In this document: positions 322-31,897 of the stretch, piece after piece
Layout of the letters: the number at the start of each line of letters is the position of its first letter
How positions within the stretch are numbered: the first letter of the stretch is position 1
From: an uncultured Pseudomonadales bacterium
Lineage (GTDB): Bacteria > Patescibacteriota > Microgenomatia > UBA1400 > MFAQ01
Direction: 5' to 3'
Assembly (NCBI GenBank): GCA_964592455.1
Contig: CAZQDQ010000001.1
Coordinates: 1 to 41,767 of the forward strand
Length of the DNA: 41,767 nt
Translations under genes and position numbers: made by a program
Notes under the pieces: generated by a model
Database searches by the model: none
Told to the model about the DNA's origin: nothing
The model's input: only the letters and a program-made list of their open reading frames with translations

Positions 322-349
322 TTAACTTTTTATTCAATAATCATATAAT
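322..349 (+). promoter_or_regulatory. Candidate sigma70-type promoter for the first plus-strand operon: -35-like TTAACT (322-327), 16-nt spacer, perfect TATAAT (344-349).
   Basis: The motifs were read directly from the sequence. The -10 ends 7 nt before the GTG start at 357, and there is no SD-like purine run in between (cggcaat). Confidence 0.4.
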
Positions 350-356
350 CGGCAAT

Positions 357-1502
357 GTGAAGATTGTTTTTATTTCAAGCATGTTACCATCCGGACATTA
401 TTCTCAGGTAATTTGTTCTGGCTTAAGCAAAAAACTTGACTTGGTTGTTTATTCCGACAATCAAAAAGAAAACTTAAAAATTCAAAATTGTGGAACAGTT
501 AAAGCTGTATGGAGAAAATCACCTCACTTTATCTTTGACATTCTTACACATTTGTCAAAAGATAAACCAGATTTAGTTCATTTTCAACACGAATTAAATA
601 TGTTTGGTGGTCAAGCAACTGCCGTTCTTTTCCCTATAGCCCTCTTGCTCGTAAAAGTCCTTGGCTACAAAACCGCTGTAACTTTTCACGGCACCGTTGC
701 CAAAAAAGACATAAACCAAAAATTCCTTTATTTATTCCATCAGGATAAAAAATACATGACTCCAACAATAATTAGGTTGTTCTTTAACTACATATTCAAA
801 GTAACATCACTTTTTTGTGACCAAATATTTGTTCACACAAAAATGGCTAAAAATATTTTAGTTAATGACTATCAAATAGATTCTAAAAAAATATCAAATA
901 TACCAATACCAATACCAAAAGAAAAAGTTCTTAAGAAAAAACAAAAAAAGTATTTTTTTTATTTTGGTTATATGGTAAGGCGAAAAGGTTTAGACTACAT
1001 CATCAATGGATTTTCTGATTTTGTTAAAAAAAGCCCAAAAACACCATTTCAGTTAATACTGGCCGGCGGAGTGATTAAGGGGCAAGAGAAAGCATTAGAG
1101 GAAGTAAGGAATCTCATCAAAAAAAAGAAGTTAGACAAAAAAATTAAAATCGTAGGTTTCATAAATCAAAAACAGCAGGACGATCTTTACAACAATGCTT
1201 ACTGCACTCTGATTCCAGCTGTCATCACGGTTGGCTCAAGTGGCCCACTATTTCACTCCGATAGTTACTATAAATGCGTTATAGCCTCAAATATTGGGTT
1301 TTTTAAAGAAGATGTCAAACACAAGAGGACTGGAATATTGACAGAAAACCACAAATGGTCGTTCTGGTTGGACTATCTGGCAAAACACCCTAAGATCGTT
1401 AGCGAAATCGAACAAAACGTGAAACATAAGGCGATTACCAGAAGTCCAGGTAGCATTGCCCTGCTTTACAAAAAAACTTATGAAAAAATCACACACAAAT
1501 AA
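357..1502 (+). CDS. Glycosyltransferase, GT-B fold / GT4-like (group 1)
   Basis: 381-aa ORF. The N-terminus MKIVFISSMLPSGHYSQ is typical of GT4 enzymes. The second half (KYFFYFGYMVRRKGLDYII...FQLILAGG...KIKIVGFI) matches the C-terminal Rossmann layout of group-1 glycosyltransferases, although the EX7E motif is degenerate. It starts at GTG; an alternative ATG lies at 381. Confidence 0.6.
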   Translation: MKIVFISSMLPSGHYSQVICSGLSKKLDLVVYSDNQKENLKIQNCGTVKAVWRKSPHFIFDILTHLSKDKPDLVHFQHELNMFGGQATAVLFPIALLLVKVLGYKTAVTFHGTVAKKDINQKFLYLFHQDKKYMTPTIIRLFFNYIFKVTSLFCDQIFVHTKMAKNILVNDYQIDSKKISNIPIPIPKEKVLKKKQKKYFFYFGYMVRRKGLDYIINGFSDFVKKSPKTPFQLILAGGVIKGQEKALEEVRNLIKKKKLDKKIKIVGFINQKQQDDLYNNAYCTLIPAVITVGSSGPLFHSDSYYKCVIASNIGFFKEDVKHKRTGILTENHKWSFWLDYLAKHPKIVSEIEQNVKHKAITRSPGSIALLYKKTYEKITHK

Positions 1503-2538
1503 ACTTTCGGTGGTCATTGTAAATCTAAATGGCATTAAATATCTAAAGAAGTTAATAAAGTCGATTCATCAATCTGCTTACAAAAAACTGGAAATTATAG
1601 TTGTTGACAACGGTTCCAAAAAGGAAGAGCTTATAAGTCTATTAAAGCTCTCAAACACAACAAAAAACCTAAAAATTATTTTTCTGCACAAAAATTTTGG
1701 TCCAGCCATGGCCAGAAACATTGGTGTCCAAAATAGTACAGGAGAATATTTGTCCTTTTTGGATAACGATACCGAAGTTGATAAAAATTGGGCCAAGAAT
1801 GCCCTAGAATACTTCACCAAACACAGAAAAGTTGGTGTCATTCAATCTAAATTATTGTTGGAGAGCGACCATCGGAAAATTGACTATGTTGGTGAATATC
1901 TAGGATCAAACGGCTTCCTAGTCCAAGAATGTCCAGCTGGAACACTAGATCGTGGGCAATTCAATAAACCAAAAAAAATCCTAGCCGCCAAATCTGCTGG
2001 AATGTTTATTAGAAGGGATGTGTTTGACAGGGCCGGTGGTTTCGATGACGATTACTTCATTTATGTAGAAGAAACCGATCTTGGTTGGCGAAGTTGGTTG
2101 ACAGGTTTTGAAGTTCATTATTTACCAACTAGTGTGGTTTACCACCATTTTGGAACTAGCACTCTGATTTTGGGGCAAAAAAATGCTAGCAACTTAGCTA
2201 AGTATCACGGCCCAAAAAACTACCTATCTACGTTATACAAAAACCTGCCAAATGAGTTATTGTGGTCAATATTATTCAAGAACCTTCTTTTGTGGATATG
2301 CTTCATTATCTATCGTGCTCTTATATTCAAGCTAGATGATTCCTATTACATGAGCAAGGGAGTCCTATACTTTATTGTAAATTTTAAAAAGATAAACACA
2401 AAAAGAAAAGCGATTCAGTCAAATAAAGTTTATTACGTAGATAATAATATCAAAAAGCTAGTAGTCAGTCGTCCATTGTGGTATTTTATAAGCAAGGCAA
2501 TCAATAAACAAAAAATCGGTAATGCCAATAGCTACTAA
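1480..2538 (+). CDS. Glycosyltransferase family 2 (GT-A fold)
   Basis: Motifs: LSVVIVNLNG...LEIIVVDNGS, the DxD motif LDNDTEVD, and GGFDDDYFIYVEETDLGWR (rhamnosyl/galactosyl-transferase-like GT2 signature). The ATG at 1480 is preferred over the track's TTG at 1456 and overlaps the upstream stop. Confidence 0.8.
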   Translation: MKKSHTNKLSVVIVNLNGIKYLKKLIKSIHQSAYKKLEIIVVDNGSKKEELISLLKLSNTTKNLKIIFLHKNFGPAMARNIGVQNSTGEYLSFLDNDTEVDKNWAKNALEYFTKHRKVGVIQSKLLLESDHRKIDYVGEYLGSNGFLVQECPAGTLDRGQFNKPKKILAAKSAGMFIRRDVFDRAGGFDDDYFIYVEETDLGWRSWLTGFEVHYLPTSVVYHHFGTSTLILGQKNASNLAKYHGPKNYLSTLYKNLPNELLWSILFKNLLLWICFIIYRALIFKLDDSYYMSKGVLYFIVNFKKINTKRKAIQSNKVYYVDNNIKKLVVSRPLWYFISKAINKQKIGNANSY

Positions 2539-2539
2539 A

Positions 2540-3517
2540 ATGAAGAAACCAAGCATAACTGTTTGTATTCCAACAAAGAACAGAGAAAAATCTATAGGAA
2601 AAATGCTAAACACTTTGGTTAATCAAAGTTATAAAAACTTCGAAGTTGTTATCGTAGATGGCGGCTCAACAGACAAAACTGTCAGAATAGCTAAATCTTT
2701 CAAAAAAAAGCTCAAAATTAGAATTGTTTACAAAAAAGGAGGTTTAATTCCTCAGATGAATAAGGGGTTAGCGGTAGCAAGGGGCAAAATTTTTGTCAGA
2801 ACAGACGACGATGTTTTAGCTACAAAAAGCTGGTTAAAAACTATAAGTATGGTTTTTGAAAAGGATAGAAGAGTTGGTGGTCTTACAGGCCCAACTGTAA
2901 TACCCAAAAAATACGCCAGATCGCGCGATCTTTTTTATTTTCAAAAAAAACTAAGAAACGGCAACTTTTTTTGGAGGATTCTTGGAGTAATTTACTATGG
3001 ATATTTTATGGAAGGAAAGCCGATGAGGGTTAGCCACTGGTTTAAATCGGGGGCCTTTTCCCTGGGTAGTAATTTTTCAGTCTCAAGAAAAGTAAGATAC
3101 AAAAAGGTTAGCAACTTAGAAGCATGCAATTGGGCTGTTAGAACGAAGTTACTTAAGAGGGTGGGAGGCTTTGATAATAGTTACACAGGCATTGGCGAGT
3201 ATCATGAACCGGACGCATCTTTAAAAATCAGGAAACTTGGATATAAATTAATGTTTCATCCAAAAGCAGAAGTAAACCACTGCCCATCAACAGAGGGTTT
3301 CTTTTCGGAGAGGCCCTTAAGCTACCCAAGGATAATAAACTTTATAATTTTTTACAAAAGACATATTAAAATTAACTCTTTTGACAAGCTTTTAAGATTC
3401 TCAGCCTATTTAATTTTTCAAAATTTTTATTACATTTATCAAGCGGTTAACAAAAGACAGCTAGGCCTTTTGGGTTCAATACCAGGTACGCTCGTGGGTA
3501 TACTTTTTAAATCATAA
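2540..3517 (+). CDS. Glycosyltransferase family 2 (GT-A fold)
   Basis: Motifs: ITVCIPTKNREKSIGKML...FEVVIVDGGSTDKT, the acidic motif RTDDDV, and a GGFD motif. ATGs exist at both 2522 and 2540; the one at 2540 lies just after the upstream stop. Confidence 0.8.
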   Translation: MKKPSITVCIPTKNREKSIGKMLNTLVNQSYKNFEVVIVDGGSTDKTVRIAKSFKKKLKIRIVYKKGGLIPQMNKGLAVARGKIFVRTDDDVLATKSWLKTISMVFEKDRRVGGLTGPTVIPKKYARSRDLFYFQKKLRNGNFFWRILGVIYYGYFMEGKPMRVSHWFKSGAFSLGSNFSVSRKVRYKKVSNLEACNWAVRTKLLKRVGGFDNSYTGIGEYHEPDASLKIRKLGYKLMFHPKAEVNHCPSTEGFFSERPLSYPRIINFIIFYKRHIKINSFDKLLRFSAYLIFQNFYYIYQAVNKRQLGLLGSIPGTLVGILFKS

Positions 3518-4278
3518 TGATTATAAGAGCTAAAAGACTAGATCTCAGGAGGCTAAAAAAGTTTGGATTCCCATCAGACCTTATTTTTAGAGGTACAGAA
3601 CTCAAATTTATTACTAAAGAGTTATCAAAAATTAAACTTGTAGGGCCCTCTCTTGATCTTGGTTGTGGGGATGGATTTCTATGCAGGACGATTTTTAGAG
3701 AAAAATTTGATTATGGTCTAGATAACGACGAAGCTGGAGTAGTTAAAGAAGCGATCAAAAAAAAACGATATAAAAAGGTTATTATTGAATCAGCAACGAA
3801 TATATCTTTACCAAGCAAATCTCTAAATCTAGTTTTTAGTAACAGTGTTGTTGAACATATACCTAACAACTATGGAGTTTTACAAGAGGTTTCCAGGATA
3901 TTAAAAAAAAATGGCTACTTTATTTTTACCTGTCCCTCGGTCTACTTTACTGACTATCTTTCAAAAAACTTTGGTGGAAAATTGTACTCCAAATTGAGAA
4001 ATAGGCAGTTTAACCACTTTCATTTATATGACCACAAAACTTGGAAAAAAAGACTAGCTGCCAGCAAAATGCGCCTAGTTGATTACCGCTATTACATGAA
4101 CGAGACAGACTTGGTATTTTGGGAAAAACTACTATGGCAGCAAAAAATGTACAAATACTTCCCGTCACTTGTTAATAACCCTGTCTACTACCGAAAAGAA
4201 ATAATAAAAAGAATAAAAAAAGCTGTTTCAAGTAAGTATCACGGGGCAAATATATTAATTATTGCCAAGAAGAAATAA
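3517..4278 (+). CDS. Class I SAM-dependent methyltransferase
   Basis: Motif I is LDLGCGDG. The post-I acidic residue and LNLVFSNSVVEHIPN / GYFIFTCP match the Methyltransf_11/25 architecture. The start overlaps the upstream stop (TAATG). Confidence 0.75.
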   Translation: MIIRAKRLDLRRLKKFGFPSDLIFRGTELKFITKELSKIKLVGPSLDLGCGDGFLCRTIFREKFDYGLDNDEAGVVKEAIKKKRYKKVIIESATNISLPSKSLNLVFSNSVVEHIPNNYGVLQEVSRILKKNGYFIFTCPSVYFTDYLSKNFGGKLYSKLRNRQFNHFHLYDHKTWKKRLAASKMRLVDYRYYMNETDLVFWEKLLWQQKMYKYFPSLVNNPVYYRKEIIKRIKKAVSSKYHGANILIIAKKK

Positions 4279-4282
4279 CAGT

Positions 4283-5038
4283 ATGTATTACAAGCAGTTT
4301 AGAAAAGGAAAAAGAATTAAAGCAAAGGCACATTATGGCAATCTGTTCACTGACAAGTATATGGTTTTGAGATTTAATATAAATTACTTTTTTGCTAAAA
4401 AAGTACTCAAAAAATATAAAAGAATTAATGTTTTAGATGTAGGAGGTTATACCGCAGACAATCTCAAATTTTGGAAAAACTCTGGTGAAAAAATAAAAAA
4501 GATTGACTATAATGTTGCTGACTACGACACTGAGGCAGGAAAAATTGCCACCACAAGGGGCGCGAAGTATCACTACTATGATTTAAACTTAGATAATCTT
4601 CTTAAATTATTCCCAAACAAAAAATTTGACCTTATAATTTGCACAGAGGTGCTTGAGCATCTGTTAGACCCACACCGTCAAATGGGATATTTTCTGAGAT
4701 TACTTAAGAGAAATGGCAGGTTAATCATTTCTCTACCCAACGAAAACACCATTTTTCATAGAATCTATGCCTTACTTGGTCTTGGTATCGATCAGTATCC
4801 ATTTGTTTTATACAAACATCTTCACTTCCCAACCATTCAACAATCAGAGACCTTTGTCAAAAACTATTTTTGTCTAATTGACAAAAAATACTATATGAAC
4901 TTCGGTGGTATAGGGTCAAGATTTGCTTTTTTTGGTAAATTATTTAGGCTAATACCAGATAGTGTCTGGCGTACTCTTGTAGATCTTTTTCCTGGATTAT
5001 TGGCTCGCGGTACGGTCTTCTACCTCAGGAAAAAATGA
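4283..5038 (+). CDS. Class I SAM-dependent methyltransferase
   Basis: Motifs: VLDVGGYTADN (motif I-like), DLIICTEVLEHLLDP, GRLIISLPNE. The ATG at 4283 follows the upstream stop at 4278; the track's TTG at 4262 is less likely. Confidence 0.7.
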   Translation: MYYKQFRKGKRIKAKAHYGNLFTDKYMVLRFNINYFFAKKVLKKYKRINVLDVGGYTADNLKFWKNSGEKIKKIDYNVADYDTEAGKIATTRGAKYHYYDLNLDNLLKLFPNKKFDLIICTEVLEHLLDPHRQMGYFLRLLKRNGRLIISLPNENTIFHRIYALLGLGIDQYPFVLYKHLHFPTIQQSETFVKNYFCLIDKKYYMNFGGIGSRFAFFGKLFRLIPDSVWRTLVDLFPGLLARGTVFYLRKK

Positions 5039-5784
5039 TTTTAGAAAAACTAAGACTACTGCTTGAAATATTCTCTCAGGTCAAAAAGCCTTTCACTCTG
5101 TTGAGTTTATGGCTAGGGGTTGGCGGTAACAGTGTTGTCAGCTCAGGAAACACAAAAGCCTATCTTAGAAACAACAAAATTGATTATTGGATATTTCTAG
5201 AAAACATTATCAGTGATACTTATGGACTAAAAAACCTCCGGTATATAAGGTTTGACAACATTATCGACATTGGAGGTAATATTGGTCTGTTCACTATTAG
5301 TACCAAAAAATACTGGCCGAAAGCAAAAAGGGTCATTGTGGAGCCAAACAAAAACTCACTCAAAGTTCTTAAAAAAAACTTAAAACTAAACAAAATTAAT
5401 GCTATCACAACGAACAAAGCTGTTATCGGTAGTCAAAAGAAAAAATCGATTAAACTTTATTTAAACGAAAACCCAGCCATGTCATCGCTAACAAACTCAG
5501 CAGGAAAATACATTAAAGTAAGAACAGTCAGCATAAACCAAATAATTCCAGAAACTGGCAACACACTGGTAAAAATAGACATAGAAGGTGGTGAGTATAG
5601 TCTCCTAACAAAGAAGAATAAGTCCACTTTTAAAAAAATTGACGTATTATTAATGGAGACCCACGATCTTGGCAATAAAAAGAATAGTAAACATGTCGTA
5701 AACTGGCTAAAAAAAATTGGTTTTAGGGTCTACTATGAAAACAGAAGCATCACAGCCATCAGCACCACTAAAGCTAATTTCTGA
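5035..5784 (+). CDS. FkbM-family methyltransferase
   Basis: IIDIGGNIGLFT, LKKNLKLNKINAITTNKAV and IDIEGGEYSLL are the hallmark blocks of the FkbM (Methyltransf_21) family. There is an ATGA overlap with the upstream gene. Confidence 0.75.
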   Translation: MILEKLRLLLEIFSQVKKPFTLLSLWLGVGGNSVVSSGNTKAYLRNNKIDYWIFLENIISDTYGLKNLRYIRFDNIIDIGGNIGLFTISTKKYWPKAKRVIVEPNKNSLKVLKKNLKLNKINAITTNKAVIGSQKKKSIKLYLNENPAMSSLTNSAGKYIKVRTVSINQIIPETGNTLVKIDIEGGEYSLLTKKNKSTFKKIDVLLMETHDLGNKKNSKHVVNWLKKIGFRVYYENRSITAISTTKANF

Positions 5785-9353: not shown

Positions 9354-9413
9354 CTTGATTTCTTCTGGTATCTTCCAATATTTTCTAATATTATCTAAAG
9401 TGTAAAATAAACT

Positions 9414-10811
9414 GTGGCTTGGATAAAAAAATATTTTTACCTTTTTCCTGTTTTATTTTATTTACCTGCGCTTGGTAACTTCTTTTCAGCTGACGACTGG
9501 TTTCATCTTCGTATCTCCCAAATAGACTCGCTTGAGCAGTTTTTTAACTTTTTTTCTTTTAGCCAAACCCCGCAATCCGCCAGCTTCTACAGACCTCTCT
9601 CAACTCAAGTTTTCTTTTTTATCTTCCAAAAGTTCTTTGGTTTAAATTCCGTTGCTTATTATTTGTTTGGTCTACTACTCTTTGGCTACTCAATATATCT
9701 CGTCAGAAAATTCAGCTCTTTATATCTGAGAACTGAGATCTGTAATCTAGCATCTATTATTTATGGACTATCTGCCTCAAACTTTACCAGACTTTACTTT
9801 GTTTCTGCTTTTCAAGAGTTATTTTTGGTAGTTTTCTCTCTTCTGACTTTAATTAACTTCAAGTCCAGGCCAAAGCTATCCCTTCTTTTTTTTGTTTTAG
9901 CTCTGCTTTCCAAAGAAACCGCCATCGTCCTCCCAGTCTTAGTTCTTCTCCTAAATTATAAATACATAGTTGCTAACAAGTTTAACAATCTGAGATCTGA
10001 GATCTTGGTATCTGTGATCTATTTGTATTTTAGGTTTTTTCATTTTGGTCTAGTCACAGGCGATAGTTATTTGTGGGACTTCTCACTAGTCAAAGCGGTC
10101 AATACGCTAATGTGGTATGTTCTTTGGTCTATTGGCTCGCCAGAACTGCTAGTAGACTACATTGGCTCCGGCCTAAAGCCAATACCCAGATTCTTTGTCG
10201 ATTATGCAAGCTGGTGGCCATTTATTGTTTTTCCACTTTTAGCAATCATTATCTCCACCATTACTATTTTCTTAAAAAACTTTAAAAAGTTAAACTCTTA
10301 TTTTTGGGTATTTACTTTGTTTTTTGTTATTAGCCTTTTGCCAGTTTTATTTCTGCCATCGCACAAGTTTGCACTAGAACTTGGCCTGCCATTAGTGGGT
10401 TTTGCTATTGCACTCTCAATCTTAATTAAAAAGTCAAACAATATTTTTTATTTTGTGTTTTTGGGAATTTTTATTTTTTACAATTTATCGATGAACTACC
10501 TAACTTACACCCGCCACTACTCAGTCAGTAGGGGACAGATCTCCAAAAATGTCTATCAATTTATTAATCAAAATTACCCTTCTCCTCCAGAAAATAGTTA
10601 CTTTGAATTCATAAACGATGCTCAAGATTACGGTCCCATCTGGGGGCAGTCAAAGCAGATATCCCAAAGCCTAAGCAACTCCGATTTTTTCAAAGTCTTC
10701 TATCATCAACCAGACTACATGGTTTATTATCAAGATGAGGTTGATGATAAACCATCTACAACCGGTTTTGCACCAATAGAACTTAGTACCAAGCAATTTT
10801 TAAACCAATGA
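9414..10811 (+). CDS. GT-C-fold membrane glycosyltransferase candidate (PMT/TMTC/YfhO-like)
   Basis: 465 aa with at least 10 hydrophobic segments. The acidic first-loop motif FSADDWFHL (D27-D28) sits directly after TM1, followed by FYRPLS, as seen in PMT/TMTC-type GT-C proteins. It starts at GTG 9414; there is no nearby ATG. Confidence 0.55.
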   Translation: MAWIKKYFYLFPVLFYLPALGNFFSADDWFHLRISQIDSLEQFFNFFSFSQTPQSASFYRPLSTQVFFFIFQKFFGLNSVAYYLFGLLLFGYSIYLVRKFSSLYLRTEICNLASIIYGLSASNFTRLYFVSAFQELFLVVFSLLTLINFKSRPKLSLLFFVLALLSKETAIVLPVLVLLLNYKYIVANKFNNLRSEILVSVIYLYFRFFHFGLVTGDSYLWDFSLVKAVNTLMWYVLWSIGSPELLVDYIGSGLKPIPRFFVDYASWWPFIVFPLLAIIISTITIFLKNFKKLNSYFWVFTLFFVISLLPVLFLPSHKFALELGLPLVGFAIALSILIKKSNNIFYFVFLGIFIFYNLSMNYLTYTRHYSVSRGQISKNVYQFINQNYPSPPENSYFEFINDAQDYGPIWGQSKQISQSLSNSDFFKVFYHQPDYMVYYQDEVDDKPSTTGFAPIELSTKQFLNQ

Positions 10812-16306: not shown

Positions 16307-17563
16307 GTGAACAAAATTTTGGCTGTTTTTAAAACCCAAACCATCAAAGATGGGTTTTTGATGGGTTTAGGCACCTTCTTTACTGCTTTTTTTGGTTTTT
16401 TATTCACCATTATCATGGCCAGGAGCCTGTCTCCAGAAAAATTTGGAGTCTTTTCTGCTCTAACTTCGCTTGTTGCCATACTCTACAGTTTGGGTGACCT
16501 GGGTATAGGGCCAGCGATAATAAACTTTCTACCGCGTCACAGAAACCAAGAAACAAAAATAATTAGTACCAGTTTTTGGTTTCAATATGCTGTAGGTCTT
16601 GTTGTGGCCATAGGTTTATGGTTGATAGCAAACCAAAACAACATCATTATCCCAGGGTCATTACCTGGTCACTTTTACTTAGTAGGTTCTTTGTGCTTCA
16701 ATTACATCCTTATCGGCTGGGCCCAGTCTGTCTTAACAGCCAAAAGAGACTTTTTGCGGATTTCGCTAAGTCAGATTATTGATTCAGTAATCAAAATAAT
16801 TCTTGTTTACTATCTATACACTGATAGTGGTTTAAGTATTTCTCTTGCTTTAGCCGCTAACGCCTTATCTGTCTGCATCGCTCTTTTCCTTATTTTTAGC
16901 AAAGAATTAATTGTTGTCCCTTTAAAGTTTGACAAAAAAACATTTGTCAACCTCTTTCATTTTTCAAAATGGATAGCTTTATCTAGATTTTTTTCTGTAT
17001 TTTATTCCAAAGTAGACATTCTTTTGCTCAATCTGTTAGGAACCAGTTTTCAGGCAGGAATCTTTGCTGCCTCAAGCCGGATCACTCTTCTGTTTGCCAT
17101 TATTGTTTCTAGTTTAGGTTCAGTTATAAACCCCAGGTTTGCCCATTTCACACTCAGAAAGGACTTTTTAAACTATTCCAAAAAAGTTTTTTTACTTATC
17201 TCTGGCTTAGCAGTCATACTGTTATTAACAGTTCTATTTGCAAAGCCAATTGTTGTCTTTGTTTTTGGTGAAAAGTTTTCGGAATCTATTAAGGTTTTTC
17301 AGCTTCTTAGCCTGTCGATGATCCCTTTTCTTTACAGCGCTATTTTTACTGCTGCCACACTTTATACTTTTCAGATTCCGTCTTTTTATGCTTTTCTAAC
17401 CTTTTTAAATCTAGGGATAACAGTGGTGGCAAACCTGATTTTAATCCCTAAAATCGGCTACTTTGCCCCTATTTATGGCTCTTTGATAGGAAACACCACC
17501 TGTTTAATTTTAAGTGCTTGGAAAGTAAAACAGCTCTACCATAGCAGTCCTCTTTTAAAATAG
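16307..17563 (+). CDS. Polysaccharide/oligosaccharide flippase, MOP superfamily (Wzx-like)
   Basis: 418 aa with about 12 hydrophobic segments. The N-terminus (IKDGFLMGLGTFFTAFFGFLFTIIMARSLSPEKFGVFSAL) is typical of the Polysacc_synt/Wzx family. It starts at GTG. Confidence 0.7.
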   Translation: MNKILAVFKTQTIKDGFLMGLGTFFTAFFGFLFTIIMARSLSPEKFGVFSALTSLVAILYSLGDLGIGPAIINFLPRHRNQETKIISTSFWFQYAVGLVVAIGLWLIANQNNIIIPGSLPGHFYLVGSLCFNYILIGWAQSVLTAKRDFLRISLSQIIDSVIKIILVYYLYTDSGLSISLALAANALSVCIALFLIFSKELIVVPLKFDKKTFVNLFHFSKWIALSRFFSVFYSKVDILLLNLLGTSFQAGIFAASSRITLLFAIIVSSLGSVINPRFAHFTLRKDFLNYSKKVFLLISGLAVILLLTVLFAKPIVVFVFGEKFSESIKVFQLLSLSMIPFLYSAIFTAATLYTFQIPSFYAFLTFLNLGITVVANLILIPKIGYFAPIYGSLIGNTTCLILSAWKVKQLYHSSPLLK

Positions 17564-18265
17564 GTTGTATTTAATCACACACCACAGCGCCCAAAAACCA
17601 TCTTTCCAGCCTATTTTTTTACCTTGCTCATATTTTCTCCCCTTGTAGCTGATACCTATTTCGTACAGTCTGCAATTCATTTTTGCTATTTTTGCTGTTA
17701 CTTCTGGCTCAAAACCAAATCTATTTTCGTTTATTTTTACTCTCTTAATTACTTTTGTTCTAAAAACCTTATAACCAGTCTCCATATCGGTAAGATTAAG
17801 GTTGGTAAATGCGTTAGAAACCAAAGTTAAAAACCTGTTAGCTACCATGTGCCAAAAAAACAGTACTCTATGTGGTTGACCTCCCATAAACCGCGACCCA
17901 TAAACGACATCGGCGTACCCCAGTCTTATTGGCCTAACCAGTTTTCTGATTTCTCTTGGAGAATATTCCAGATCAGCATCCTGTATAACTACAGCTTGGC
18001 CTGTTACCCTTTTCAATCCCGCTCTAATTGCCGCCCCCTTCCCTCGATTAATACTCAGTCTAACGACCTTAATAGTTACTCCATACTTTTCCCTTTTTCT
18101 TTTAAAATTTTTAATTTCTTTGTATGTTCCATCTATAGATCCGTCATCTACAACTATAATTTCCTTCTTTAAACCATCAATTTTAACTTTAACTAGCGCA
18201 GAAAGTGTTTTTTTAATAAAACGCTCCTCGTTAAAAACTGGAACTATAATCGAGATTTTTTTCAT
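17555..18265 (-). CDS. GT2 polyprenyl-phosphate sugar synthase (DPM1/ALG5/GtrB-like)
   Basis: Motifs: ISIIVPVFNEE...IIVVDDGSIDGT, INRGKGAAIRAGL, QDADLEY, VVYGSRF, LTDMETGYKVF, FGFEPEVTAKI, ISYKGRKYEQGKKIGWKDG. This block order is characteristic of the dolichyl/undecaprenyl-phosphate glycosyltransferase subgroup of GT2. The ATG at complement(18263-18265) is preferred over the track's GTG at 18292. Confidence 0.75.
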   Translation of the reverse strand: MKKISIIVPVFNEERFIKKTLSALVKVKIDGLKKEIIVVDDGSIDGTYKEIKNFKRKREKYGVTIKVVRLSINRGKGAAIRAGLKRVTGQAVVIQDADLEYSPREIRKLVRPIRLGYADVVYGSRFMGGQPHRVLFFWHMVANRFLTLVSNAFTNLNLTDMETGYKVFRTKVIKRVKINENRFGFEPEVTAKIAKMNCRLYEIGISYKGRKYEQGKKIGWKDGFWALWCVIKYNLF

Positions 18266-18273
18266 GAAAAAGC

Positions 18274-18279
18274 TATAAT
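18274..18279 (+). promoter_or_regulatory. Perfect TATAAT -10 hexamer 5 nt upstream of the GTG start at 18285
   Basis: Read directly from agcTATAATcaattGTG. It lies in the 19-nt gap between the divergent start codons (18265 minus, 18285 plus). Confidence 0.4.
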
Positions 18280-18284
18280 CAATT

Positions 18285-19574
18285 GTGCCCACATTTTATC
18301 AGTATTTAGCCTTCATATTGCCTTTTGCTTATACACTAATAAATGGTTATTTTTTATCTGTTGAATTTAGTCTATACCCATATTTTATTTCAGTAGGACT
18401 TCTGCCTTACAAAAACATTGTTGACCAGCACTTTCCCAGTCATTTTTTTGGATTTTTTTCTTTCCCTTTTATCTTGGTAAACGACCCCAAAAAACTCTTA
18501 ATAATGCTTGTTAGTCTAAATCTGCTAACAATATACCTTCTGCTTGTTACACTAAAAAATCTCAAGGTCATCAGATATCAAGCTTGGACCTTAATATTCT
18601 CTCTTCTGCTTGTTTTTTTCTCCGTCAACACCTTGTGGATAGAGACATTTATTTGTTTTTATCTTACTCTCGTTTTTTTCTTAAGTACAAAAAAAGAGCC
18701 TTACTATCATTTTGTGTCTGGAATAATTATTAGCCAGGCAATCCTTTTACGTCCGACTATTGCCTTTTTCTTATTTGGTTACTTTCTTTATCTGGCCAAA
18801 AACAAGGCTCATGTTTTCTTTGGTAGCCTTTTTGGCTTTATTTTAAGTTTTTGGTACTTAGTAGAAAAAAATATTCTTTTAGACTTTTACCAAGTTGTCA
18901 TTGCTTTTAATAGAGATGTTTACGCTTTTGTTCAAAGCCAAGCTCCCACTTTTCGCCAAATATTTACCATTGGTTTGTTGATTCTTATTTTTACTGGATT
19001 AAATCTTTGGAAAAAAAAGTATCTTTACGCCATCCTTGGTTTATCAACCACAATTCTTGCTTGGCCCCGCTTTGGCTTAGAACATCTTCAGGTATTTATT
19101 CTCACCTTTGTTTATTTTTTGTCTCAGCTAAACTTAGATAAAAAAGTCATCAATTTTCTTTTGGCAATCTCTATTTTAGTTAGTGTGCAGTCCTGGTTGT
19201 CCATTTTAAAAGGTGTTTATGGAAACTACTTTTATACACCAACCGTTTTGGAAATATCAAAACAAATAAAACAACTACCAGATAAAAACATTTATTTGTA
19301 TGGTGCTTCTGACCTCATCTATCAGCTAGCCGAAAAACTACCACCCAACAACTACTACTTACCATCACTGCCATGGTATATAAACCATATGCCATTTCAA
19401 AAAAAGCTAAAACAATCACTCTTGCTCACTAAGACAGTAATTATCGACCCAGATTTTACCGTCGATGGTCAAAAATTGATTGACACCACACCAGAACTGC
19501 TCTCATATATTAAAATGAACTACTACAAAGACGGGAATATTAAACATTTAGAAATCTACAAATTAAAACAATGA
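18285..19574 (+). CDS. Polytopic membrane protein with a C-terminal soluble domain of about 100 aa; possible GT-C-like glycosyltransferase
   Basis: 429 aa with about 10 hydrophobic segments and a hydrophilic C-terminus (YGASDLIYQLAEKLPPNNYYLPSLPWY...). It is divergently paired with the polyprenyl-phosphate GT2. I recognise no diagnostic motif. Confidence 0.4.
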   Translation: MPTFYQYLAFILPFAYTLINGYFLSVEFSLYPYFISVGLLPYKNIVDQHFPSHFFGFFSFPFILVNDPKKLLIMLVSLNLLTIYLLLVTLKNLKVIRYQAWTLIFSLLLVFFSVNTLWIETFICFYLTLVFFLSTKKEPYYHFVSGIIISQAILLRPTIAFFLFGYFLYLAKNKAHVFFGSLFGFILSFWYLVEKNILLDFYQVVIAFNRDVYAFVQSQAPTFRQIFTIGLLILIFTGLNLWKKKYLYAILGLSTTILAWPRFGLEHLQVFILTFVYFLSQLNLDKKVINFLLAISILVSVQSWLSILKGVYGNYFYTPTVLEISKQIKQLPDKNIYLYGASDLIYQLAEKLPPNNYYLPSLPWYINHMPFQKKLKQSLLLTKTVIIDPDFTVDGQKLIDTTPELLSYIKMNYYKDGNIKHLEIYKLKQ

Positions 19575-20674
19575 GAGTTGCAATTGATATCAGTCAGTCA
19601 ATTTACGGTACTGGGGTTTCCGTTTACACCAAGGAATTAGTAAAAAACCTCACCAGTCTTTACCCAGAGACTGAATTTGTCTTATTTGGTGGATCTCTAA
19701 GGAGAAAAAAAGAGCTTTTAGCCATAGCTAAAAAGTTAGGCGGTGTCCCCAAAATATACCCTTTCCCCCCAAGCTTAATGGATTTTATTTGGAACTCGCT
19801 CCACATTTATCCAATTGAAAATTTAACAGGTAAGGTAGATATTTTTCACAGTTCAGACTGGACCGAACCACCTAGCAAAATTCCCAAAGTTACTACTGTT
19901 CACGACTTGGTGCCTTTTAAGTACCCACAAACCACAACAGATAGCATTAGAAACGCCCACAAGAAAAAAATTGCTTGGGTAATAAGAGAATCAAAAAAAA
20001 TTATTGCTGTCAGCGAATCAACAAAAGAAGACTTAATAAATATACTAAAGGTTCCGGAGGGAAAAATAGTTGTTATACCAGAAGGAGTAGAAGAAAAGAT
20101 GAGGCCGCAACCAATTGAAATACAAGAAATAGTAAAACGACGCTATAAAACCGGTGACGATTACCTCTTTGCGTTATCAACTCTAGAACCAAGAAAAAAC
20201 CAGACTGGTTTACTAAAAGCCTTTAAAATCGTCAAAAAAACCTATCCTAATCTAAAACTTGTCATCGGCGGCATGAAACGATCCGATGGTATCAAGATCG
20301 AGGATGACGATGTTCTTGTTTTAGGTTACATACCTCAATCAGATCTGCCGGCTTTATATTCTGGTTGTTTGGCATTCATTCACCCTGCTTTTTACGAAGG
20401 GTTTGGTTTAACCCCACTTGAGGCTATGGCTTGTGGAGCTCCTGTGGCTGTTTCGAACACCTCGAGTTTGCCAGAAGTTGTTGGTAAAGCGGGCCATTAC
20501 TTTGACCCAAAGGATGAAAACTCCATGGCTTCCAGTATAATCAAGACCATCCAAGACAGGGCTAAACTGAGGCATTTAGGCTTAGCTCAGGCACAAAAGT
20601 TCTCATTCAAACAAGCCGCACAAAGAACATATAAGGTATATAAGGATGTTCTGGAGGATCTTGGAAAACTATGA
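19571..20674 (+). CDS. Glycosyltransferase family 4 (group 1, GT-B)
   Basis: MRVAIDISQ... at the N-terminus, the EX7E region YEGFGLTPLEAMACGAPVAVSNTSSLPEVVG, and an ATGA overlap. Confidence 0.85.
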   Translation: MRVAIDISQSIYGTGVSVYTKELVKNLTSLYPETEFVLFGGSLRRKKELLAIAKKLGGVPKIYPFPPSLMDFIWNSLHIYPIENLTGKVDIFHSSDWTEPPSKIPKVTTVHDLVPFKYPQTTTDSIRNAHKKKIAWVIRESKKIIAVSESTKEDLINILKVPEGKIVVIPEGVEEKMRPQPIEIQEIVKRRYKTGDDYLFALSTLEPRKNQTGLLKAFKIVKKTYPNLKLVIGGMKRSDGIKIEDDDVLVLGYIPQSDLPALYSGCLAFIHPAFYEGFGLTPLEAMACGAPVAVSNTSSLPEVVGKAGHYFDPKDENSMASSIIKTIQDRAKLRHLGLAQAQKFSFKQAAQRTYKVYKDVLEDLGKL

Positions 20675-26548: not shown

Positions 26549-27744
26549 AGATTCTAATGTTGACCCCATACCTGCCATACCCAGACTCATCTGGCGGGCA
26601 GATAAGAACGCAAAACTTACTAAAACACTTGTGTAAGGAACACGAAATTACTTTAATTTCTTTAATTAAGGACTACAAAGAAAACGATAATGTTAAGCAC
26701 CTTCTTAAATATTGTAAAAAAGTTATCACTTTTAAAAGAAGCACCAGTCCATGGACACTAAAAAACATTCTTAAAACAGGTTTCTCCCTCAACCCCTTTT
26801 TAATAGTCAGAAACTTTGCTCCAGGCGTTAGGGAAGCTGTCTCTCGGGAATTAAAAAATGGAGACTACGATCTTATCCATGCTGAAACTTTTTATGTTAT
26901 GCCCAGTATCCCCAAAACAAGCCTCCCCATAATTTTGGTAGACCAGACGATAGAATATCTAGTTTACCAGCACTATGTAAACGAGACGGCTCCATGGTTT
27001 CTGCGGCCACTATTGCAGATCGACGTTGAAAAAACCAAATACAAGGAAAGATACTACTGGCGCAAAGCAGATATGGTAATTGCTGTTTCGGAAACAGACA
27101 AAAAGGAAATGCTCAAACTCGAGCCGCACATCAAAGTAGATGTTGTCCAAAATGGTGTTAATCTGGATTTATTTAGAAAAAAAACTAACTGGAACACAAA
27201 AGAAAAAGTCATAATGCAGCTTAGCAACTTCCGTTGGTTACAAAACATTGAAGCAGCTGAAATGTTGATTAAAAAAGTCTTTCCTCTTGTCAGAGAAAAA
27301 GTCAAAAGTGCCAAACTCTGGATAGTTGGTCAGCATATCCCAAAAAACATTTCCGATATAGCTACTAGCGGCGTTATTATCAAGGACTTTCCCCAGGAGG
27401 ACTCGGAGTCTTTAGTTGATTGCTTACAAAATGCCTCTGTATTTGCAGCAACTATAAAAGGTCCAGGCGGATCTCGCCTAAAAAATTTGGCGGCTATGGC
27501 AAGCCAGTTGCCTATAGTTTCAACTCAAATAGGCGTAGAAGGGCTCGATGTTAAGCACAATGAACACGTTTTAATTGGAAATAGTCCTACTAAAATTGCC
27601 AAATACATTGTAAAACTCTTAAATAATCCAAAACTAGCTGAGCGTTTGGCAAAGACAACAAGAAAACATGTAGAGAGCAACTTTGACTGGAAAATTGTTG
27701 CCAAAAAACTAAGCAACTTATATATTCAGTTATCTAAAAGATGA
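26545..27744 (+). CDS. Glycosyltransferase family 4-like (GT-B)
   Basis: The N-terminus [22 protein letters not shown] is typical of GT4. The C-terminal half has the GT-B layout (KLWIVGQ..., [27 protein letters not shown]). Confidence 0.75.
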
Positions 27745-28664
27745 AACCAAAGGTAGTCAAAAAAGATCTTGCCATAATAATTGTCAATTACAACACAAAG
27801 GATTTGTTGTCTAATTGCTTAAAAACAATAAGGTCGGCTGAAAAACCAGCCAAGGGGGTAGAAGTTATTGTTGTTGATAATGGCTCGGTGGATGGTAGTC
27901 TACAAATGCTAAAAAAGGATTTTCCAGAAGTATCAGTCATTTCAAATAGCAAAAACCTTGGTTTTTCAAAAGCAAACAATCAAGCAGCAAAAAAAGCAAA
28001 TTCGAAATATCTATTGTTTCTAAACTCCGACACGGAGATAAAAAGGTATAGTCTGGTAAAGCCGCTAAAATATATCAAGACTCACCCAAAAGTAGGAGCC
28101 ATAACTATTAAGCTTTTTCTAAAAAACGGTGAGATTGATTACGATAATCATCGCAATTTCCCCACCCCCTGGGTTGCCTTTACTAAACTGTTTGGTTTGT
28201 CTTCTCTTTTTCCTAACTCTACAGTTTTTAACTCTTATCACTTAGGTAGAAAAAATCTAAATATCGTCCATGCCATACCTGTCACAGCAGGTTCATTTAT
28301 TATGATTCCAGACACGGTTTTTAAAAAAATAGGAGGTTGGGATGAAGCATATTTCTTTTATGGTGAAGACATTGATTTGTGTTATAGAATTGGCACTAGT
28401 GGCTACAAAATCATCTATTACCCCAAAACCTCTGCTCTTCATTTACGCGGCGCTTCATCTGGGCTTCGTAAAGAAAATAGTCTTTCTGCATCCTCTGATA
28501 AAACTAATCGGCTAAAAGTCGCCAATGCCTCTGTGGCTGCCTGGAAAAAATTTTATAAAAAGTTCTACCAGCAAAAATACCCAATTTGGCTAACGGGAAT
28601 AGTAGTCATTGGTATAAATCTACTTGGCACTATCAGGTTAATAAAGTACAAACTAAAGAAATGA
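27741..28664 (+). CDS. Glycosyltransferase family 2 (GT-A)
   Basis: Motifs: [14 protein letters not shown]...[39 protein letters not shown]. Confidence 0.85.
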
Positions 28665-29797
28665 GGATTGGCATAGACGCTAGGCTTTATGGCCCAGAGC
28701 ATACAGGTTTAGGTAGATATGTAACTAACCTTGTAAACAACTTACTAACTATCGACAAAAAAAATCAATACGTTCTTTTCGTAACAGACAAACACAACAA
28801 GGACTTTAAAACCAGTTCCAATCTAAAAATTGTTACCACCAATATTCCAATATATACTTTTGCAGAGCAAATTTTTTTACCCATAATATACCTAAGAGAA
28901 AAATTGGATATACTTCACGTTCCTCACTTCAACGCCCCAATACTTTATCCCAAAAAAATAATAATTACTTTACACGACTTAATAAAGCACAGTTCAAAAG
29001 GAAAAGAAACTACTACTAGGTCAGTAGCAGGTTACTTGCTAAAAAGAGTGGGATATATGATTGAGTTTTGGTTTATTAGTAAAAGAGCTTCTGCGATTAT
29101 TACCCCCACTAACTTTGTTAAAGAAGACATCTCTAAAAGTTTAAAAATTTCCAAGGACAAAATATTTGTTACCTACGAAGCAAGTGATGGAAAAATAAAA
29201 AAACAAAACTTAAGTCTAAAAGACTCAAGGCAAACGTTAACAAGTCATGGACTAACTCAACCTTTTGTTATCTACACAGGCAATGTTTACCCACATAAAA
29301 ATATCGACCTACTTATAGAGGCTATTTTATTGCACAACAGCAAAAAAGAAGTTGATCTTAACTTAGCTATTGTTTGTGCAAGGTCGGTCTTCTATAACAA
29401 GGTGGAGACTAAAATTGCCAAATTAAATGCCCAAAAGTATGTAAAACTTCTAGGGTTTATCGATGACAGGGAGCTCGGAAAGCTTTACTCTCTGGCTCTT
29501 TGTCTTGTCCACCCAAGTAAAATGGAGGGTTTTGGTTTAACTGGTATTGAAGCAATGTCAGCTGGTCTGCCAGTTATTTCATCCAACGCTTCGTGCTTGC
29601 CAGAGGTCTATGGAAATGCCGCTATATATTTTGATCCCAACTCGGTCGATGACCTGGTCAACGCACTAGAAAAAATAATTAGTAGTAGTCAGCTTCGTCA
29701 AGATTTAAGTAAAAAAGGCTACGCGCAATCAAAAAAGTATTCATGGAAGCGCCTAACCCAAGAAACAATTTCTATTTACAAGTCCCTAAGTAGATGA
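28661..29797 (+). CDS. Glycosyltransferase family 4 (group 1, GT-B)
   Basis: [20 protein letters not shown] at the N-terminus and [31 protein letters not shown]. The ATG at 28661 (ATGA overlap) is preferred over the track's upstream alternative start at 28586. Confidence 0.85.
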
Positions 29798-30867
29798 AGG
29801 TAGCCATTGTTTATGACCGTGTTAATAAGTATGGCGGGGCAGAGAGATTATTAGAATCAATTATCTCTATCTTTCCAGACGCCCCTCTCTTTACTCTAGT
29901 TTACGAACCAAAAAATGCAAAATGGACCAAAAAAACAAAAGTCACTCCTACCTTCTTAAATAAGTTTTTCTTTTTAAGGTCACATCACGAAATACTTGCT
30001 CCAGTAGCACCTATGGCATTTGAAACCCTGGATCTTAAAGCATTTGATCTAGTTATTTCGGTAACCAGCTCAGATGCCAAATCAATTCTTACAAGTCCAC
30101 ATCAAATACACCTTTGTATTTGTTTGACACCAACCAGATATTTATGGAAAGGCTCAAAAAGTTATCAGCAAGACTGGAAAATGAAATTTTTGCCAACCTT
30201 TATGTTTAATTACTTTCGCTTTGTTGATCAGATAACCGCCTTAAGACCAGATTATTTTTTGGCAATTTCCAACGAAGTTAGACGTAGAATCAAAAATTAT
30301 TATAATCGCGAATCTATTGTTATTTACCCACCAGTAAGTAAACTCTTTTTTAAAAAAAATAAAAAACACCAAAAAAAAGATTTTTACCTAGTGGCTGGCA
30401 GACTAGTCCCTTATAAAAAAGTAGATTTAGTTATTAACTACTTTAATAAATCAAACAAAAAACTTGTAGTAATTGGCGAAGGTTCAGAATTCAGTAAATT
30501 AAAAAAAATGGCTTCAAAAAATATTACTTTTTTGGGAAAAGTCAGCGATAGAGATCTAATAAAGTACTACTCACAATCAAAAGCCTTAATCTTTCCTGGG
30601 TTGGAGGACTTTGGTCTTATTCCCTTAGAAGTGCAGGCTGTAGGTACACCAGTGATTGCTTACAAAGCTGGTGGAGCTAAAGAGACTATTATCGACGGAG
30701 TCACTGGAGTTTTTTTTAAAAAACAGACTGTTAAGTCACTTTCAAAGGCTATAGAGAAATTTGAAAAATTAAGAATAAACCCAAATGATTGTATTAGAAA
30801 CGCCAAAAGATTTAATATCAAAGAGTTTAAAACTAAACTACTTGAGTTTGTTGTGTCGATTACTTAA
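29794..30867 (+). CDS. Glycosyltransferase family 4 (group 1, GT-B)
   Basis: [65 protein letters not shown]. Confidence 0.85.
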   Translation: MKVAIVYDRVNKYGGAERLLESIISIFPDAPLFTLVYEPKNAKWTKKTKVTPTFLNKFFFLRSHHEILAPVAPMAFETLDLKAFDLVISVTSSDAKSILTSPHQIHLCICLTPTRYLWKGSKSYQQDWKMKFLPTFMFNYFRFVDQITALRPDYFLAISNEVRRRIKNYYNRESIVIYPPVSKLFFKKNKKHQKKDFYLVAGRLVPYKKVDLVINYFNKSNKKLVVIGEGSEFSKLKKMASKNITFLGKVSDRDLIKYYSQSKALIFPGLEDFGLIPLEVQAVGTPVIAYKAGGAKETIIDGVTGVFFKKQTVKSLSKAIEKFEKLRINPNDCIRNAKRFNIKEFKTKLLEFVVSIT

Positions 30868-31885
30868 CTATTTCGCCAACTCTTCCTGACAAGTCTCTTC
30901 GGCAAACCAAAATACCATCTTTCCCTTCTATTACAATAGCATCATCATAACCTATAACAGCTACTTTTTTGCCACTATCTGAATAACAAAAATTGTTGCT
31001 CCCTTCGATTTGTACTAGGCCAGAGTGTTTGGGAGCAATATTATTATTTGTGTAGTGTTTTTCAACACTAGCCCAAGTTCCAAAATCAATCCACTCAAAA
31101 GGGTTTTCAATAACAAGCGATTCACCATTAATATGCGAAAGCTTTGTTACTTCTTCCAACTGACCACTTGCCATCTTAGAGTACTCAGTACCAACATCGC
31201 CCCCGTCTACAATTTTCTTTAGGGGTTCATACCAGTCAGGGCGATACTTTTTAAACATTTTTAACATTCCATCAGGCGTCATAGTTGTGTGATTTGTATG
31301 AAGTAGTAGTTCATCGGAACTCATCATTTTTTCGATTCTTTCTGTTTCTTGGCGGTCAATAAAGTCAGCTATCTCAAATGCTTTTACTCCATCTACACTA
31401 GTCAATAGCTTGCCCTTTTGCAGATAGTCAACCCCTGCCTGATGCCATTTTGGTGAAAATCCACCCGTAATGTATTTTCCCGTTTTTTGAGAAAACGTTT
31501 CTGCTACATCCATAAACTTAAAAATTGCATCTTCCGGCACTCGTAGGTCATCAGTTTGGATCAGCATAAAAGTTTTGTTTCCAAAACCTCGCATTTTTAA
31601 GTAGGCAGCTGCCAAACCTGAAGCTGGCCCCTGATTTTTTGTTTGTGGTTCAATAAAAATATTTTCTTGCAAAATTTCTGGAACCTGTTTTTTGGCTATT
31701 TCAGACTGATTAGAATTTGTTTGTATGTATATTTCTTTAGCAGAATACCTTTTTCTTAGCACTCTCCAATTCACTTGGAACAAAGACTCTCCATTTACCA
31801 GAGGTAAAAAATGTTTTGGTAAATTACTTGTACTTAGAGGCCACATTTTCGAACCAATGCCTCCACAGATTATAACTGGTATCAT
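30860..31885 (-). CDS. manC: Mannose-1-phosphate guanylyltransferase-like sugar nucleotidyltransferase (short form, no cupin/PMI domain)
   Basis: MIPVIICGGIGSKMWPLSTSNLPKHFLPLVNGESLFQ matches the GGxGxRLWPLS...PKQFL signature of ManC/CpsB. The ATG at complement(31883-31885) is preferred over the track's upstream start at 31927. Confidence 0.7.
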   Translation of the reverse strand: MIPVIICGGIGSKMWPLSTSNLPKHFLPLVNGESLFQVNWRVLRKRYSAKEIYIQTNSNQSEIAKKQVPEILQENIFIEPQTKNQGPASGLAAAYLKMRGFGNKTFMLIQTDDLRVPEDAIFKFMDVAETFSQKTGKYITGGFSPKWHQAGVDYLQKGKLLTSVDGVKAFEIADFIDRQETERIEKMMSSDELLLHTNHTTMTPDGMLKMFKKYRPDWYEPLKKIVDGGDVGTEYSKMASGQLEEVTKLSHINGESLVIENPFEWIDFGTWASVEKHYTNNNIAPKHSGLVQIEGSNNFCYSDSGKKVAVIGYDDAIVIEGKDGILVCRRDLSGRVGEIVK

Positions 31886-31891
31886 TTCGAC

Positions 31892-31897
31892 ATTATA
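31892..31897 (-). promoter_or_regulatory. Perfect TATAAT (minus strand) 6 nt upstream of the manC-like ATG
   Basis: The reverse complement of 31883-31900 reads ggTTATAATgtcgaaATG. Confidence 0.4.

Follow-up and report, generated by a model that had tools for sequence, protein, structure and literature searches.

In discussions of how translation initiation arose, the leaderless mode is often put forward as ancestral; the best-documented bacterial cases are those of Actinobacteria and Deinococcus-Thermus. At the leaderless 5' ends of mycobacteria, AUG and GUG are both used, as Shell et al. reportedly described in 2015. In the GeneMarkS-2 classification, group C genomes have a Pribnow box 6-8 nucleotides (nt) from the starts of operon-first genes, and 25-50% of their operons are leaderless; this group is the usual one in Actinobacteria (90%) and Deinococcus-Thermus (97%), and few Proteobacteria and Firmicutes belong to it (PMC6028130). 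The motif of group B, the Bacteroidota type, precedes all genes and cannot be a promoter, and in the archaeal group D (haloarchaea, Sulfolobus) a TATA box is found about 26 nt upstream (PMC6028130). Here, we analyse contig CAZQDQ010000001.1 (41,767 bp, 36% GC; the entire contig is called the window hereafter), where a perfect TATAAT hexamer stands 5-7 nt before the start codon of one gene of each divergent pair. Judging from the sequence, it is likely that sigma-70 promoters of this DNA start transcription at the start codon or at most 2 nt from it, which would represent leaderless initiation of the group C type in a Microgenomates lineage.

The Candidate Phyla Radiation (CPR), to which Microgenomates belong, is huge and almost wholly uncultured, and its members have small genomes and miss several ribosomal proteins. 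In most of them the S1 protein is short, with 3-4 S1 domains, and a survey of CPR ribosomes found loss of the anti-Shine-Dalgarno (anti-SD) motif in a Parcubacteria subgroup only (PMC9297842). The sole CPR set of transcription start sites (TSS) that we found is RNA-seq-inferred and comes from Nanosynbacter lyticus (PMC12641261). A full-text search returned no paper tying leaderless mRNAs to CPR/Patescibacteria, Saccharibacteria, Microgenomates, Parcubacteria, TM7x or Shapirobacteria; the co-occurrences were items of reference lists or concerned leaderless secretion. The doubt expressed in the original prediction, a first reading of the window alone, as to whether leaderless starts are established for such organisms is therefore justified. 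The mechanism is already known, and it seems to be undescribed for the CPR group.

Only three genes of the window are encoded on the minus strand (1-302, 17555-18265 and 30860-31885), and there are thus exactly three divergent junctions, 302(-)/357(+), 18265(-)/18285(+) and 31885(-)/31963(+). At all three, one gene of the pair bears the hexamer (sites 1, 2 and 3, Table 1). The coordinates and spacings first proposed proved exact when the sequence was read again. With distances of 7, 5 and 6 nt from the starts of genes that come first past a divergent junction, the three boxes occupy the place that a -10 box has in group C, about 6-8 nt from an operon-first start. Moreover, a sigma-70 scan calls each site promoter-like with 10 of 12 matches (TTAACT-16-TATAAT, TCGAGA-18-TATAAT and TGGATA-18-TATAAT). 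None of the three carries the TG of an extended -10 element; instead, a perfect hexamer is combined with a -35 element matching at four of six positions. The base predicted as +1 at sites 1 and 2 is a purine that follows a T. The A of the site 3 ATG is the seventh base past the hexamer, the canonical +1 position, and the G of GTG is the sixth base at site 2 and at a further candidate, GTG 9414, and the eighth at site 1.

Table 1. Promoter-like elements, associated genes and SD cores located in the window (positions are those of the window)
Feature	Coordinates	Strand	Context
Site 1 -10 box TATAAT	344..349	+	7 nt (cggcaat), then GTG 357
Site 1 weak -35-like TTAACT	322..327	+	16-nt spacer to TATAAT; 10/12 match overall
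GT4 glycosyltransferase gene (Pfam), GTG start (gene 1)	357..1502	+	leads long plus-strand operon
Site 2 -10 box TATAAT	18274..18279	+	5 nt (caatt), then GTG 18285; within 19-nt divergent spacer
Site 2 -35-like TCGAGA	18250..18255	+	18-nt spacer; inside divergent GT2 coding sequence; 10/12 overall
429-amino-acid polytopic membrane protein gene, GTG start (gene 2)	18285..19574	+	leads second plus-strand operon
Site 3 -10 box TATAAT	31897-31892	-	6 nt (gtcgaa), then ATG 31885-31883
Site 3 -35-like TGGATA	31916..31921	-	18-nt spacer; 10/12 overall
Mannose-1-phosphate guanylyltransferase-like gene (ManC)	30860..31885	-	true start, as judged from Pfam and orthologues, ATG 31885
-10-like box TAAAAT	9403..9408	+	5 nt, then GTG 9414; candidate leaderless start
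465-amino-acid membrane protein gene, GTG start	9414..10811	+	60 nt past preceding gene
Extended -10-like TGtTAGCTT	309..317	-	6 nt, then ATG 302 of epimerase-like gene; weaker leaderless candidate
Antisense TGaTAAAAT	18293..18301	-	in codons 3-6 of gene 18285; possible promoter of GT2 gene 17555-18265(-)
SD core AGGA			4 nt before 5035
SD core GAGG			12 nt before 16307

The arrangement recurs in related loci (L numbers). For site 2, the same divergent GT2/membrane-protein pair is found in five further loci (L035, L037, L038, L040 and L041; 51-68% protein identity), with a spacer of 19-20 nt that shows hardly any variation among the six orthologues. TATAAT-CAATT-GTG is invariant in all six sequences (alignment A1) while neighbouring codons vary, the start codon being GTG in six cases out of six. 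The -35-like TCGAGA reads TTGAGA in L040. The closest homologue of site 1, in L045 (59% identity), is also divergent and reads TGaTAAAAT-acaggca-GTG-AAA-ATC-GTT. The 7-nt spacer thus has the same length and a different sequence, GTG is kept and the -10 element is extended. L045 alone is useful here, as the other orthologues of gene 1 mostly show at most 53% identity and are operon-internal, hence uninformative on the promoter; a tblastn search for genes 1 and 2 in the ManC-centred loci gave no orthologue. The divergent partner of gene 1 in the window has a weaker candidate, TGtTAGCTT before ATG 302, which L045 does not keep in this form, its partner gene showing TATAAT + 7 nt + ATG instead.

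At site 3, the orthologous locus L001 (81% identity) has TATAAT-agcaac-ATG in upstream DNA that cannot otherwise be aligned. Seven ManC orthologues (L001, L002, L004, L005, L014, L017 and L025) have TATAAT 5-9 nt from the ATG; in other orthologues it lies 25-45 nt upstream and is followed by a leader, containing AGGAGG or AAGGAG in some (L007, L021, L033). These leadered orthologues, and the SD motifs of some of them, indicate that the lineage uses both leaderless and leadered modes and keeps SD recognition.

The set of TATAAT-type starts given in the original prediction was incomplete, since more of the same type are present, above all GTG 9414. The orthologues of this gene read TAAAAT + 6 nt + GTG in L038 (1113-1132) and TACAAT + 6 nt + GTG in L040 (1149-1168), and their N-terminus is conserved (W-x-KKYFYLFPVL). 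The public gene call in L038 (gene at L038:1187) starts 19 codons too far downstream.

The positional signal extends well beyond these genes. The clade set comprised the window and 42 related loci, or 653 kb and 628 open reading frames (ORFs) of at least 100 amino acids, located around a few gene neighbourhoods and not spanning whole genomes. Hexamer distances were tabulated to every in-frame candidate start in the first 90 nt of each ORF, so that no start had to be chosen. Across the 653 kb, the distances between TATAAT and start codons show a sharp peak at 5-6 nt. The first 529 kb (540 ORFs) contained 17 and 16 cases of TATAAT at 5 and 6 nt, against a mean of about 2 and a maximum of 7 for the 19 other permutations of A3T3. 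A tabulation of this kind against controls had been suggested as a check of the original prediction, and the enrichment that it looked for is present in these loci, here against permuted hexamers. The exact cases (n=59) fall into 24 protein families, including MurB-like, RuvA, RuvC and Ddl-like proteins, and nine families recur in at least two loci. The promoter profile of the clade has G at -14 in 31/56 cases (55%) and T at -15 in 43%; it lacks a conserved -35 element.

The peaks depend on the start codon. ATG candidates number 56 and 82 at 5 and 6 nt (background about 9) and GTG candidates 13, 8 and 5 (background about 2), and TTG candidates show no spacing peak in the clade census. UUG thus appears unused, which fits both a purine at +1 and leaderless initiation dependent on a 5'-terminal AUG or GUG. 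When the same script was applied to 150 kb of an SD-using Bacillus plasmid (33% GC), it returned 0, 0 and 0 cases at 5-7 nt, hence no -10 peak, whereas GGAG peaked clearly at 7-11 nt. In the clade set, genuine SD enrichment is weak. A GGAGG spike at 13 nt in the census was rejected as an SD signal, since it stems from the codons of the ManC glycine loop, which precede an internal ATG.

Gene context distinguishes between the known groups. TATAAT is present without mismatch 4-8 nt before the start in 25% of divergent genes, 6% of same-strand genes with a gap of at least 40 nt and 3% of those with a gap below 40 nt; for TAnnnT boxes at 5/6 or better, the corresponding values are 51%, 38% and 20%. 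In the related loci, therefore, positional -10 enrichment is specific to operon-first genes, as in group C. The strong bias to divergent or gapped genes differs from group B, in which first and internal genes share the same start-proximal motif.

This bears on a first alternative, according to which transcription would come from further upstream, inside the divergent gene, and TATAAT would act in the RNA as an AT-rich, unstructured S1-type or non-SD element, in the group B mode. The near-absence of SD motifs and the A/T-richness close to starts all over the window are in its favour, as is a second TATAAT (18245) located 34 nt upstream of GTG 18285. However, the motif should then also precede internal genes (PMC6028130), whereas the exact hexamer falls from 25% of divergent genes to 3% of closely following ones. 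Moreover, what is conserved is TATAAT/TAAAAT with G at -14 (31/56) and not a general AT-richness, the permuted A3T3 hexamers are without a peak, and so are TTG starts, as expected for a purine TSS. As for the second TATAAT (18245), orthologues do not keep it. A group B-like mode is thus improbable.

In a second alternative, the hexamers are real promoters and translation begins at a downstream start (ATG 381 in gene 1, TTG 18318 in gene 2), leaving short leaders devoid of SD. GTG is a weaker initiator than ATG, and gene callers picked the downstream ATG (MLPSGHYSQ) for the gene 1 homologues P0063 and P0068. The N-termini argue otherwise. At site 1, an in-frame stop (303-305) is followed by no other start codon until 357. 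Homologue N-termini there read MK[IV]VFIS..MLPSGHYSQ, and MK[IV]VFIS[GST] stands before the downstream start in 14 of the 16 gene 1 homologues listed. MKIVF presumably forms the first beta-strand of the GT4 fold. The contig of P0063 itself (L045) encodes the conserved KIVFVSS in frame after the GTG, with TGaTAAAAT 7 nt before. At site 2, the in-frame stop TAA sits inside TATAAT itself, and homologues have 429-430 residues with the N-terminus M/V-L-T-F-Y-Q-Y; the longer M-L-T-F-Y-Q-Y-L-A-F is kept in the closer ones.

For ManC, the start at 31885 retained in the original prediction is right, although the longest ORF begins at 31927. The Pfam NTP_transferase profile begins at residue 17 of the long ORF, and 33 of 34 related loci align from or near query residue 1. 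The 33 orthologues with an examined start begin with MxxV(I) (MKPVI/MIPVI) at the position of ATG 31885. The next ATG falls past the essential glycine-rich loop CGGIGSK, which argues against a downstream start for this gene too. Taken together, the Pfam boundaries, the co-linear N-termini of homologues and the in-frame stops just upstream indicate that 357, 18285 and 31885(-) are the true translation starts. The downstream ATG (e.g., 381) that the original prediction had itself held out as an alternative is untenable, as homologues conserve the residues encoded from the GTGs to the next ATG and GTG is kept in all six site 2 orthologues as well as in the closest site 1 homologue. We consider initiation from downstream starts very improbable.

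A third alternative concerns site 2 only, which could be a symmetric bidirectional promoter having one shared -10 region and driving two leaderless divergent genes. Promoters of this sort, reportedly described by Warman et al. in 2021, are said to have overlapping -10 elements with a TAnnnTA core and a TSS separation of about 18 bp. The start codons 18265(-) and 18285(+) are 20 bp apart, close to that separation, and TAGCTT on the minus strand (18275-18270) overlaps TATAAT by 2 bp. However, the symmetric core is missing, site 2 reading TATAATC. Furthermore, the minus-strand TAGCTT, the sole TAnnnT of the spacer on that strand, is just 4 nt from the ATG and is not conserved, reading TAACTG (T-7 lost) in 4/5 orthologues, whereas TGnTAAAAT, found on the minus strand 27 nt upstream of ATG 18265, is better conserved. 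A symmetric promoter was rejected on these grounds and has very little probability left. The antisense TGaTAAAAT could be the promoter of the GT2 gene, with a leader of about 20 nt, in which case two opposed promoters would overlap almost completely. Codons 3-7 of gene 18285, which cover it, show a single substitution among the six orthologues; it changes T to C in L040 and coincides with the 'n' of TGnTAAAAT. This conservation is confounded with the protein conservation of gene 18285.

TATAAT is otherwise scarce in the window: both strands together have 21 copies, whereas shuffles that preserve dinucleotides have 39.2 +/- 6.3 and never fewer than 21, and its density per kb is about four times lower than in the Bacillus plasmid of similar GC. 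This depletion suggests selection against stray -10 boxes in a genome where the -10 element would be the main part of a promoter. No more than three copies lie between genes, all of them 5-7 nt from a start codon. From window counts, we estimate the chance of finding TATAAT at spacing 5-7 for a given start at about 7.5e-4; for at least three of six divergent starts, the estimate is about 1e-8, or about 1e-6 when intergenic AT-richness is allowed for. The idea that the hexamers arose by chance in AT-rich intergenic DNA and were matched to freely chosen start codons, to which 36% GC and the ability of the TAA in TATAAT to set an upstream ORF boundary (as at site 2) lend some appeal, is effectively refuted by the depletion, by the location of the only three intergenic copies 5-7 nt from validated starts, by the lack of a peak for TAA-containing control hexamers, by peaks at in-frame (5) as well as out-of-frame (6) spacing, by orthologue conservation and by the Bacillus plasmid control.

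The interpretation of the hexamers as -10 boxes of leaderless mRNAs, already put forward in the original prediction, is supported by the spacing peak, by orthologue conservation and by the 10/12 promoter calls. It can be proposed that housekeeping sigma-70-type promoters of this organism combine a near-consensus -10 element (TATAAT/TAAAAT, often with G at -14) with only a weak -35 element. The -10 box ends 5-7 nt before GTG 357, GTG 18285, ATG 31885(-) and probably GTG 9414. Given this distance, RNA polymerase should begin at the start codon, on its purine or 1-2 nt upstream at most. The resulting mRNA would have neither a 5' untranslated region nor an SD motif, and a ribosome with initiator tRNA would bind the 5'-terminal AUG or GUG directly, a form of start-codon recognition established for Actinobacteria and Deinococcus. 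Downstream cistrons without SD, mostly linked by ATGA overlaps, would then be translated by termination-reinitiation coupling. What the analysis established is the anatomy of the sequence, the validity of the start codons, the orthologue conservation and the clade-wide positional enrichment; the transcription start positions and the translation mechanism are what we infer. The predicted 5' ends (first 45 nt) are weakly structured (minimum free energy -0.8 to -4.5 kcal/mol, z +0.2 to +1.3), which fits the model and is not discriminating.

Several points weigh against leaderless initiation at these sites. Its key step, the position of the transcription start, is deduced from the geometry of the promoters. 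With the 7-nt spacing of site 1, transcription could plausibly begin at A355 or T356 as well, which would give a leader of 1-2 nt. The -35 matches are weak (4/6), and the CPR sigma factor and its spacing rules are characterised only through the RNA-seq-inferred TSS of N. lyticus (PMC12641261). GTG accounts for only about 14% of the clade-wide candidates, yet for three of the four best cases of the window; this excess could reflect expression that is low or regulated, and not leaderless translation of high efficiency. The clade statistics come from a sample centred on few gene neighbourhoods rather than on whole genomes. Finally, two of the three junctions have a partner gene, 18265(-) or 31963(+), that lacks the pattern, which is thus not universal. 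Gene 31963(+) has TCGACA-17-GAAAAT about 40 nt upstream of its start.

Compared with the described systems, the locus most resembles group C, as exemplified by Mycobacterium tuberculosis, M. smegmatis, Deinococcus deserti and Streptomyces. In both cases, the -10 box is near the start codons of first genes, and the share affected is large (about 25-50% of divergent genes here, 25-50% of operons in group C). AUG and GUG both occur at the 5' end, and other genes of the same genomes are leadered, some with SD. In contrast to Actinobacteria and Deinococcus, the host would be a low-GC (about 36%) CPR/Microgenomates bacterium and not a high-GC one, and the phenomenon is known here from sequence alone. 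The -10 element also has the full consensus TATAAT/TAAAAT, often with G at -14, whereas that of mycobacteria is the degenerate TAnnnT. Outside leaderless genes, SD use is very low, unlike in group C systems, and internal genes appear to rely on overlap coupling.

The low GC, the near-absence of SD and the A-rich stretches before start codons are reminiscent of the Bacteroidota. In these bacteria the -7 consensus is TAnnTTTG, whereas TATAAT is here the promoter consensus. Contrary to group B, whose motif precedes all genes and cannot be a promoter (PMC6028130), the element of the window is a sigma-70 -10 box concentrated on first genes. As in archaeal group D, mRNAs would begin at the start codon and this mode would be frequent in the genome; the element responsible is, however, a bacterial -10 box at 5-7 nt and not a TATA box about 26 nt upstream (PMC6028130). 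The preference of the clade for G at -14 (55%) and T at -15 (43%) recalls extended -10 (TGn) promoters, which do not need a -35 element, and the full TGn is seen in L045 and in the 302(-) candidate; the three reported sites differ from such promoters in having no TG.

Shapirobacteria, and perhaps Microgenomates or CPR more widely, may share a common organisation, a view towards which we lean only slightly. Low-GC genomes would have about one third to one half of their transcription units leaderless, with a near-consensus -10 and little -35 element. SD use would be marginal and most other cistrons overlap-coupled. Initiation would be mostly SD-independent and probably of the 70S type, with conserved GUG leaderless genes. 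If many CPR operons are indeed leaderless and SD hardly used, this bears on how reduced ribosomes select start sites. Gene-start annotation would be affected in thousands of metagenome-assembled genomes (MAGs), callers having chosen a downstream ATG for at least two homologues (P0063/L045 and L038:1187), and promoters and operons could be predicted from sequence alone in unculturable organisms. The value of the observation would lie in the evolution of translation initiation, in CPR biology and in the practical annotation of start codons in MAGs.

Within the operons of the window, SD motifs are nearly absent, as had been noticed beforehand: 3/41 starts have an SD core of at least 4 nt within 4-15 nt. 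The GGAGG reported about 13 nt before 20671 was found at 13 nt. The number of SD cores is close to that expected from composition, and the upstream regions are A-rich. At least ten internal junctions are 4-nt ATGA overlaps. Most internal cistrons overlap the preceding stop codon by these 4 nt or abut it, with A-rich DNA upstream and no SD (e.g., 5035, 10808, 19571, 20671, 22411, 25121, 26545, 27741, 29794). The overlaps and the missing SDs point to termination-reinitiation coupling, by which internal cistrons would be translated throughout the cluster.

The gene content of the window corresponds to a dense cluster for polysaccharide or glycoconjugate biosynthesis (cell-envelope glycan). It comprises GT4 and GT2 glycosyltransferases, PMT-like membrane glycosyltransferases, GDP-mannose dehydratase and epimerase, a Wzx-type flippase, a Wzy_C protein, the ManC-like guanylyltransferase and a Bac_transf priming transferase. 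The window gave no match to a tRNA or an Rfam family and contains no rRNA, and the 3' end of 16S rRNA was present in none of the related loci fetched. An exact-protein look-up of the product of gene 19571-20674 gave no second contig, and the proteins P0001 and P0062 are likewise recorded for this contig and no other. In otherwise syntenic glycan clusters of relatives, genes with Bro-N and Fic domains interrupt the series (L035:2239-3072, L038:187-1125); the window does not have them.

The source of the contig is most probably a CPR bacterium, Shapirobacteria-like (Microgenomates group), as the homologues of ManC and gene 1 suggest. Among the ManC relatives in GTDB contigs (one genome per species), 9/34 loci are from Ca. 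Shapirobacteria and 2/34 from Patescibacteria by record name, and homologues of gene 1 (357) are named Patescibacteria, Parcubacteria or Moranbacteria. The NCBI taxonomy places Shapirobacteria in the Microgenomates group of the Patescibacteria group. MAG records with clearly Shapirobacteria-like loci (L001-L003, L006, L008, L010, L012-L016, L018-L021 and others) are often titled 'uncultured Gammaproteobacteria', 'uncultured Pseudomonadales' or 'Candidatus Methanoperedens'. Titles of the 'uncultured Pseudomonadales' type on such loci look like placeholder or wrong taxonomy labels.

Some further promoter-like arrangements were observed. In the window, a textbook TTGACA-17-CATACT promoter at 35951-35979 is followed by two overlapping candidate ORFs in different frames (35995 GTG, 36041 ATG). 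Among the leadered ManC orthologues, L006, L007, L008, L010, L011, L013, L018, L019 and L033 have in common TATAAT-N3-TTAAGTTA where the transcript is predicted to begin, and a similar TTTAAGTTAAAA is present upstream of the sugar-transferase gene 31963 of the window (window 31938-31949). TATAAT-N3-TTAAGTTA was rejected as a general promoter-proximal element, as it is not general among the TATAAT promoters of the set. In three other loci, ManC and a divergent gene of 156 amino acids are separated by 21-25 nt (L005:9950-10000, L014:5219-5239, L017:4431-4452). A separate TATAAT precedes the ATG of each gene by 5-9 nt, and the hexamers overlap one another (ATTATATAAT), an arrangement that indicates a pair of back-to-back leaderless promoters.

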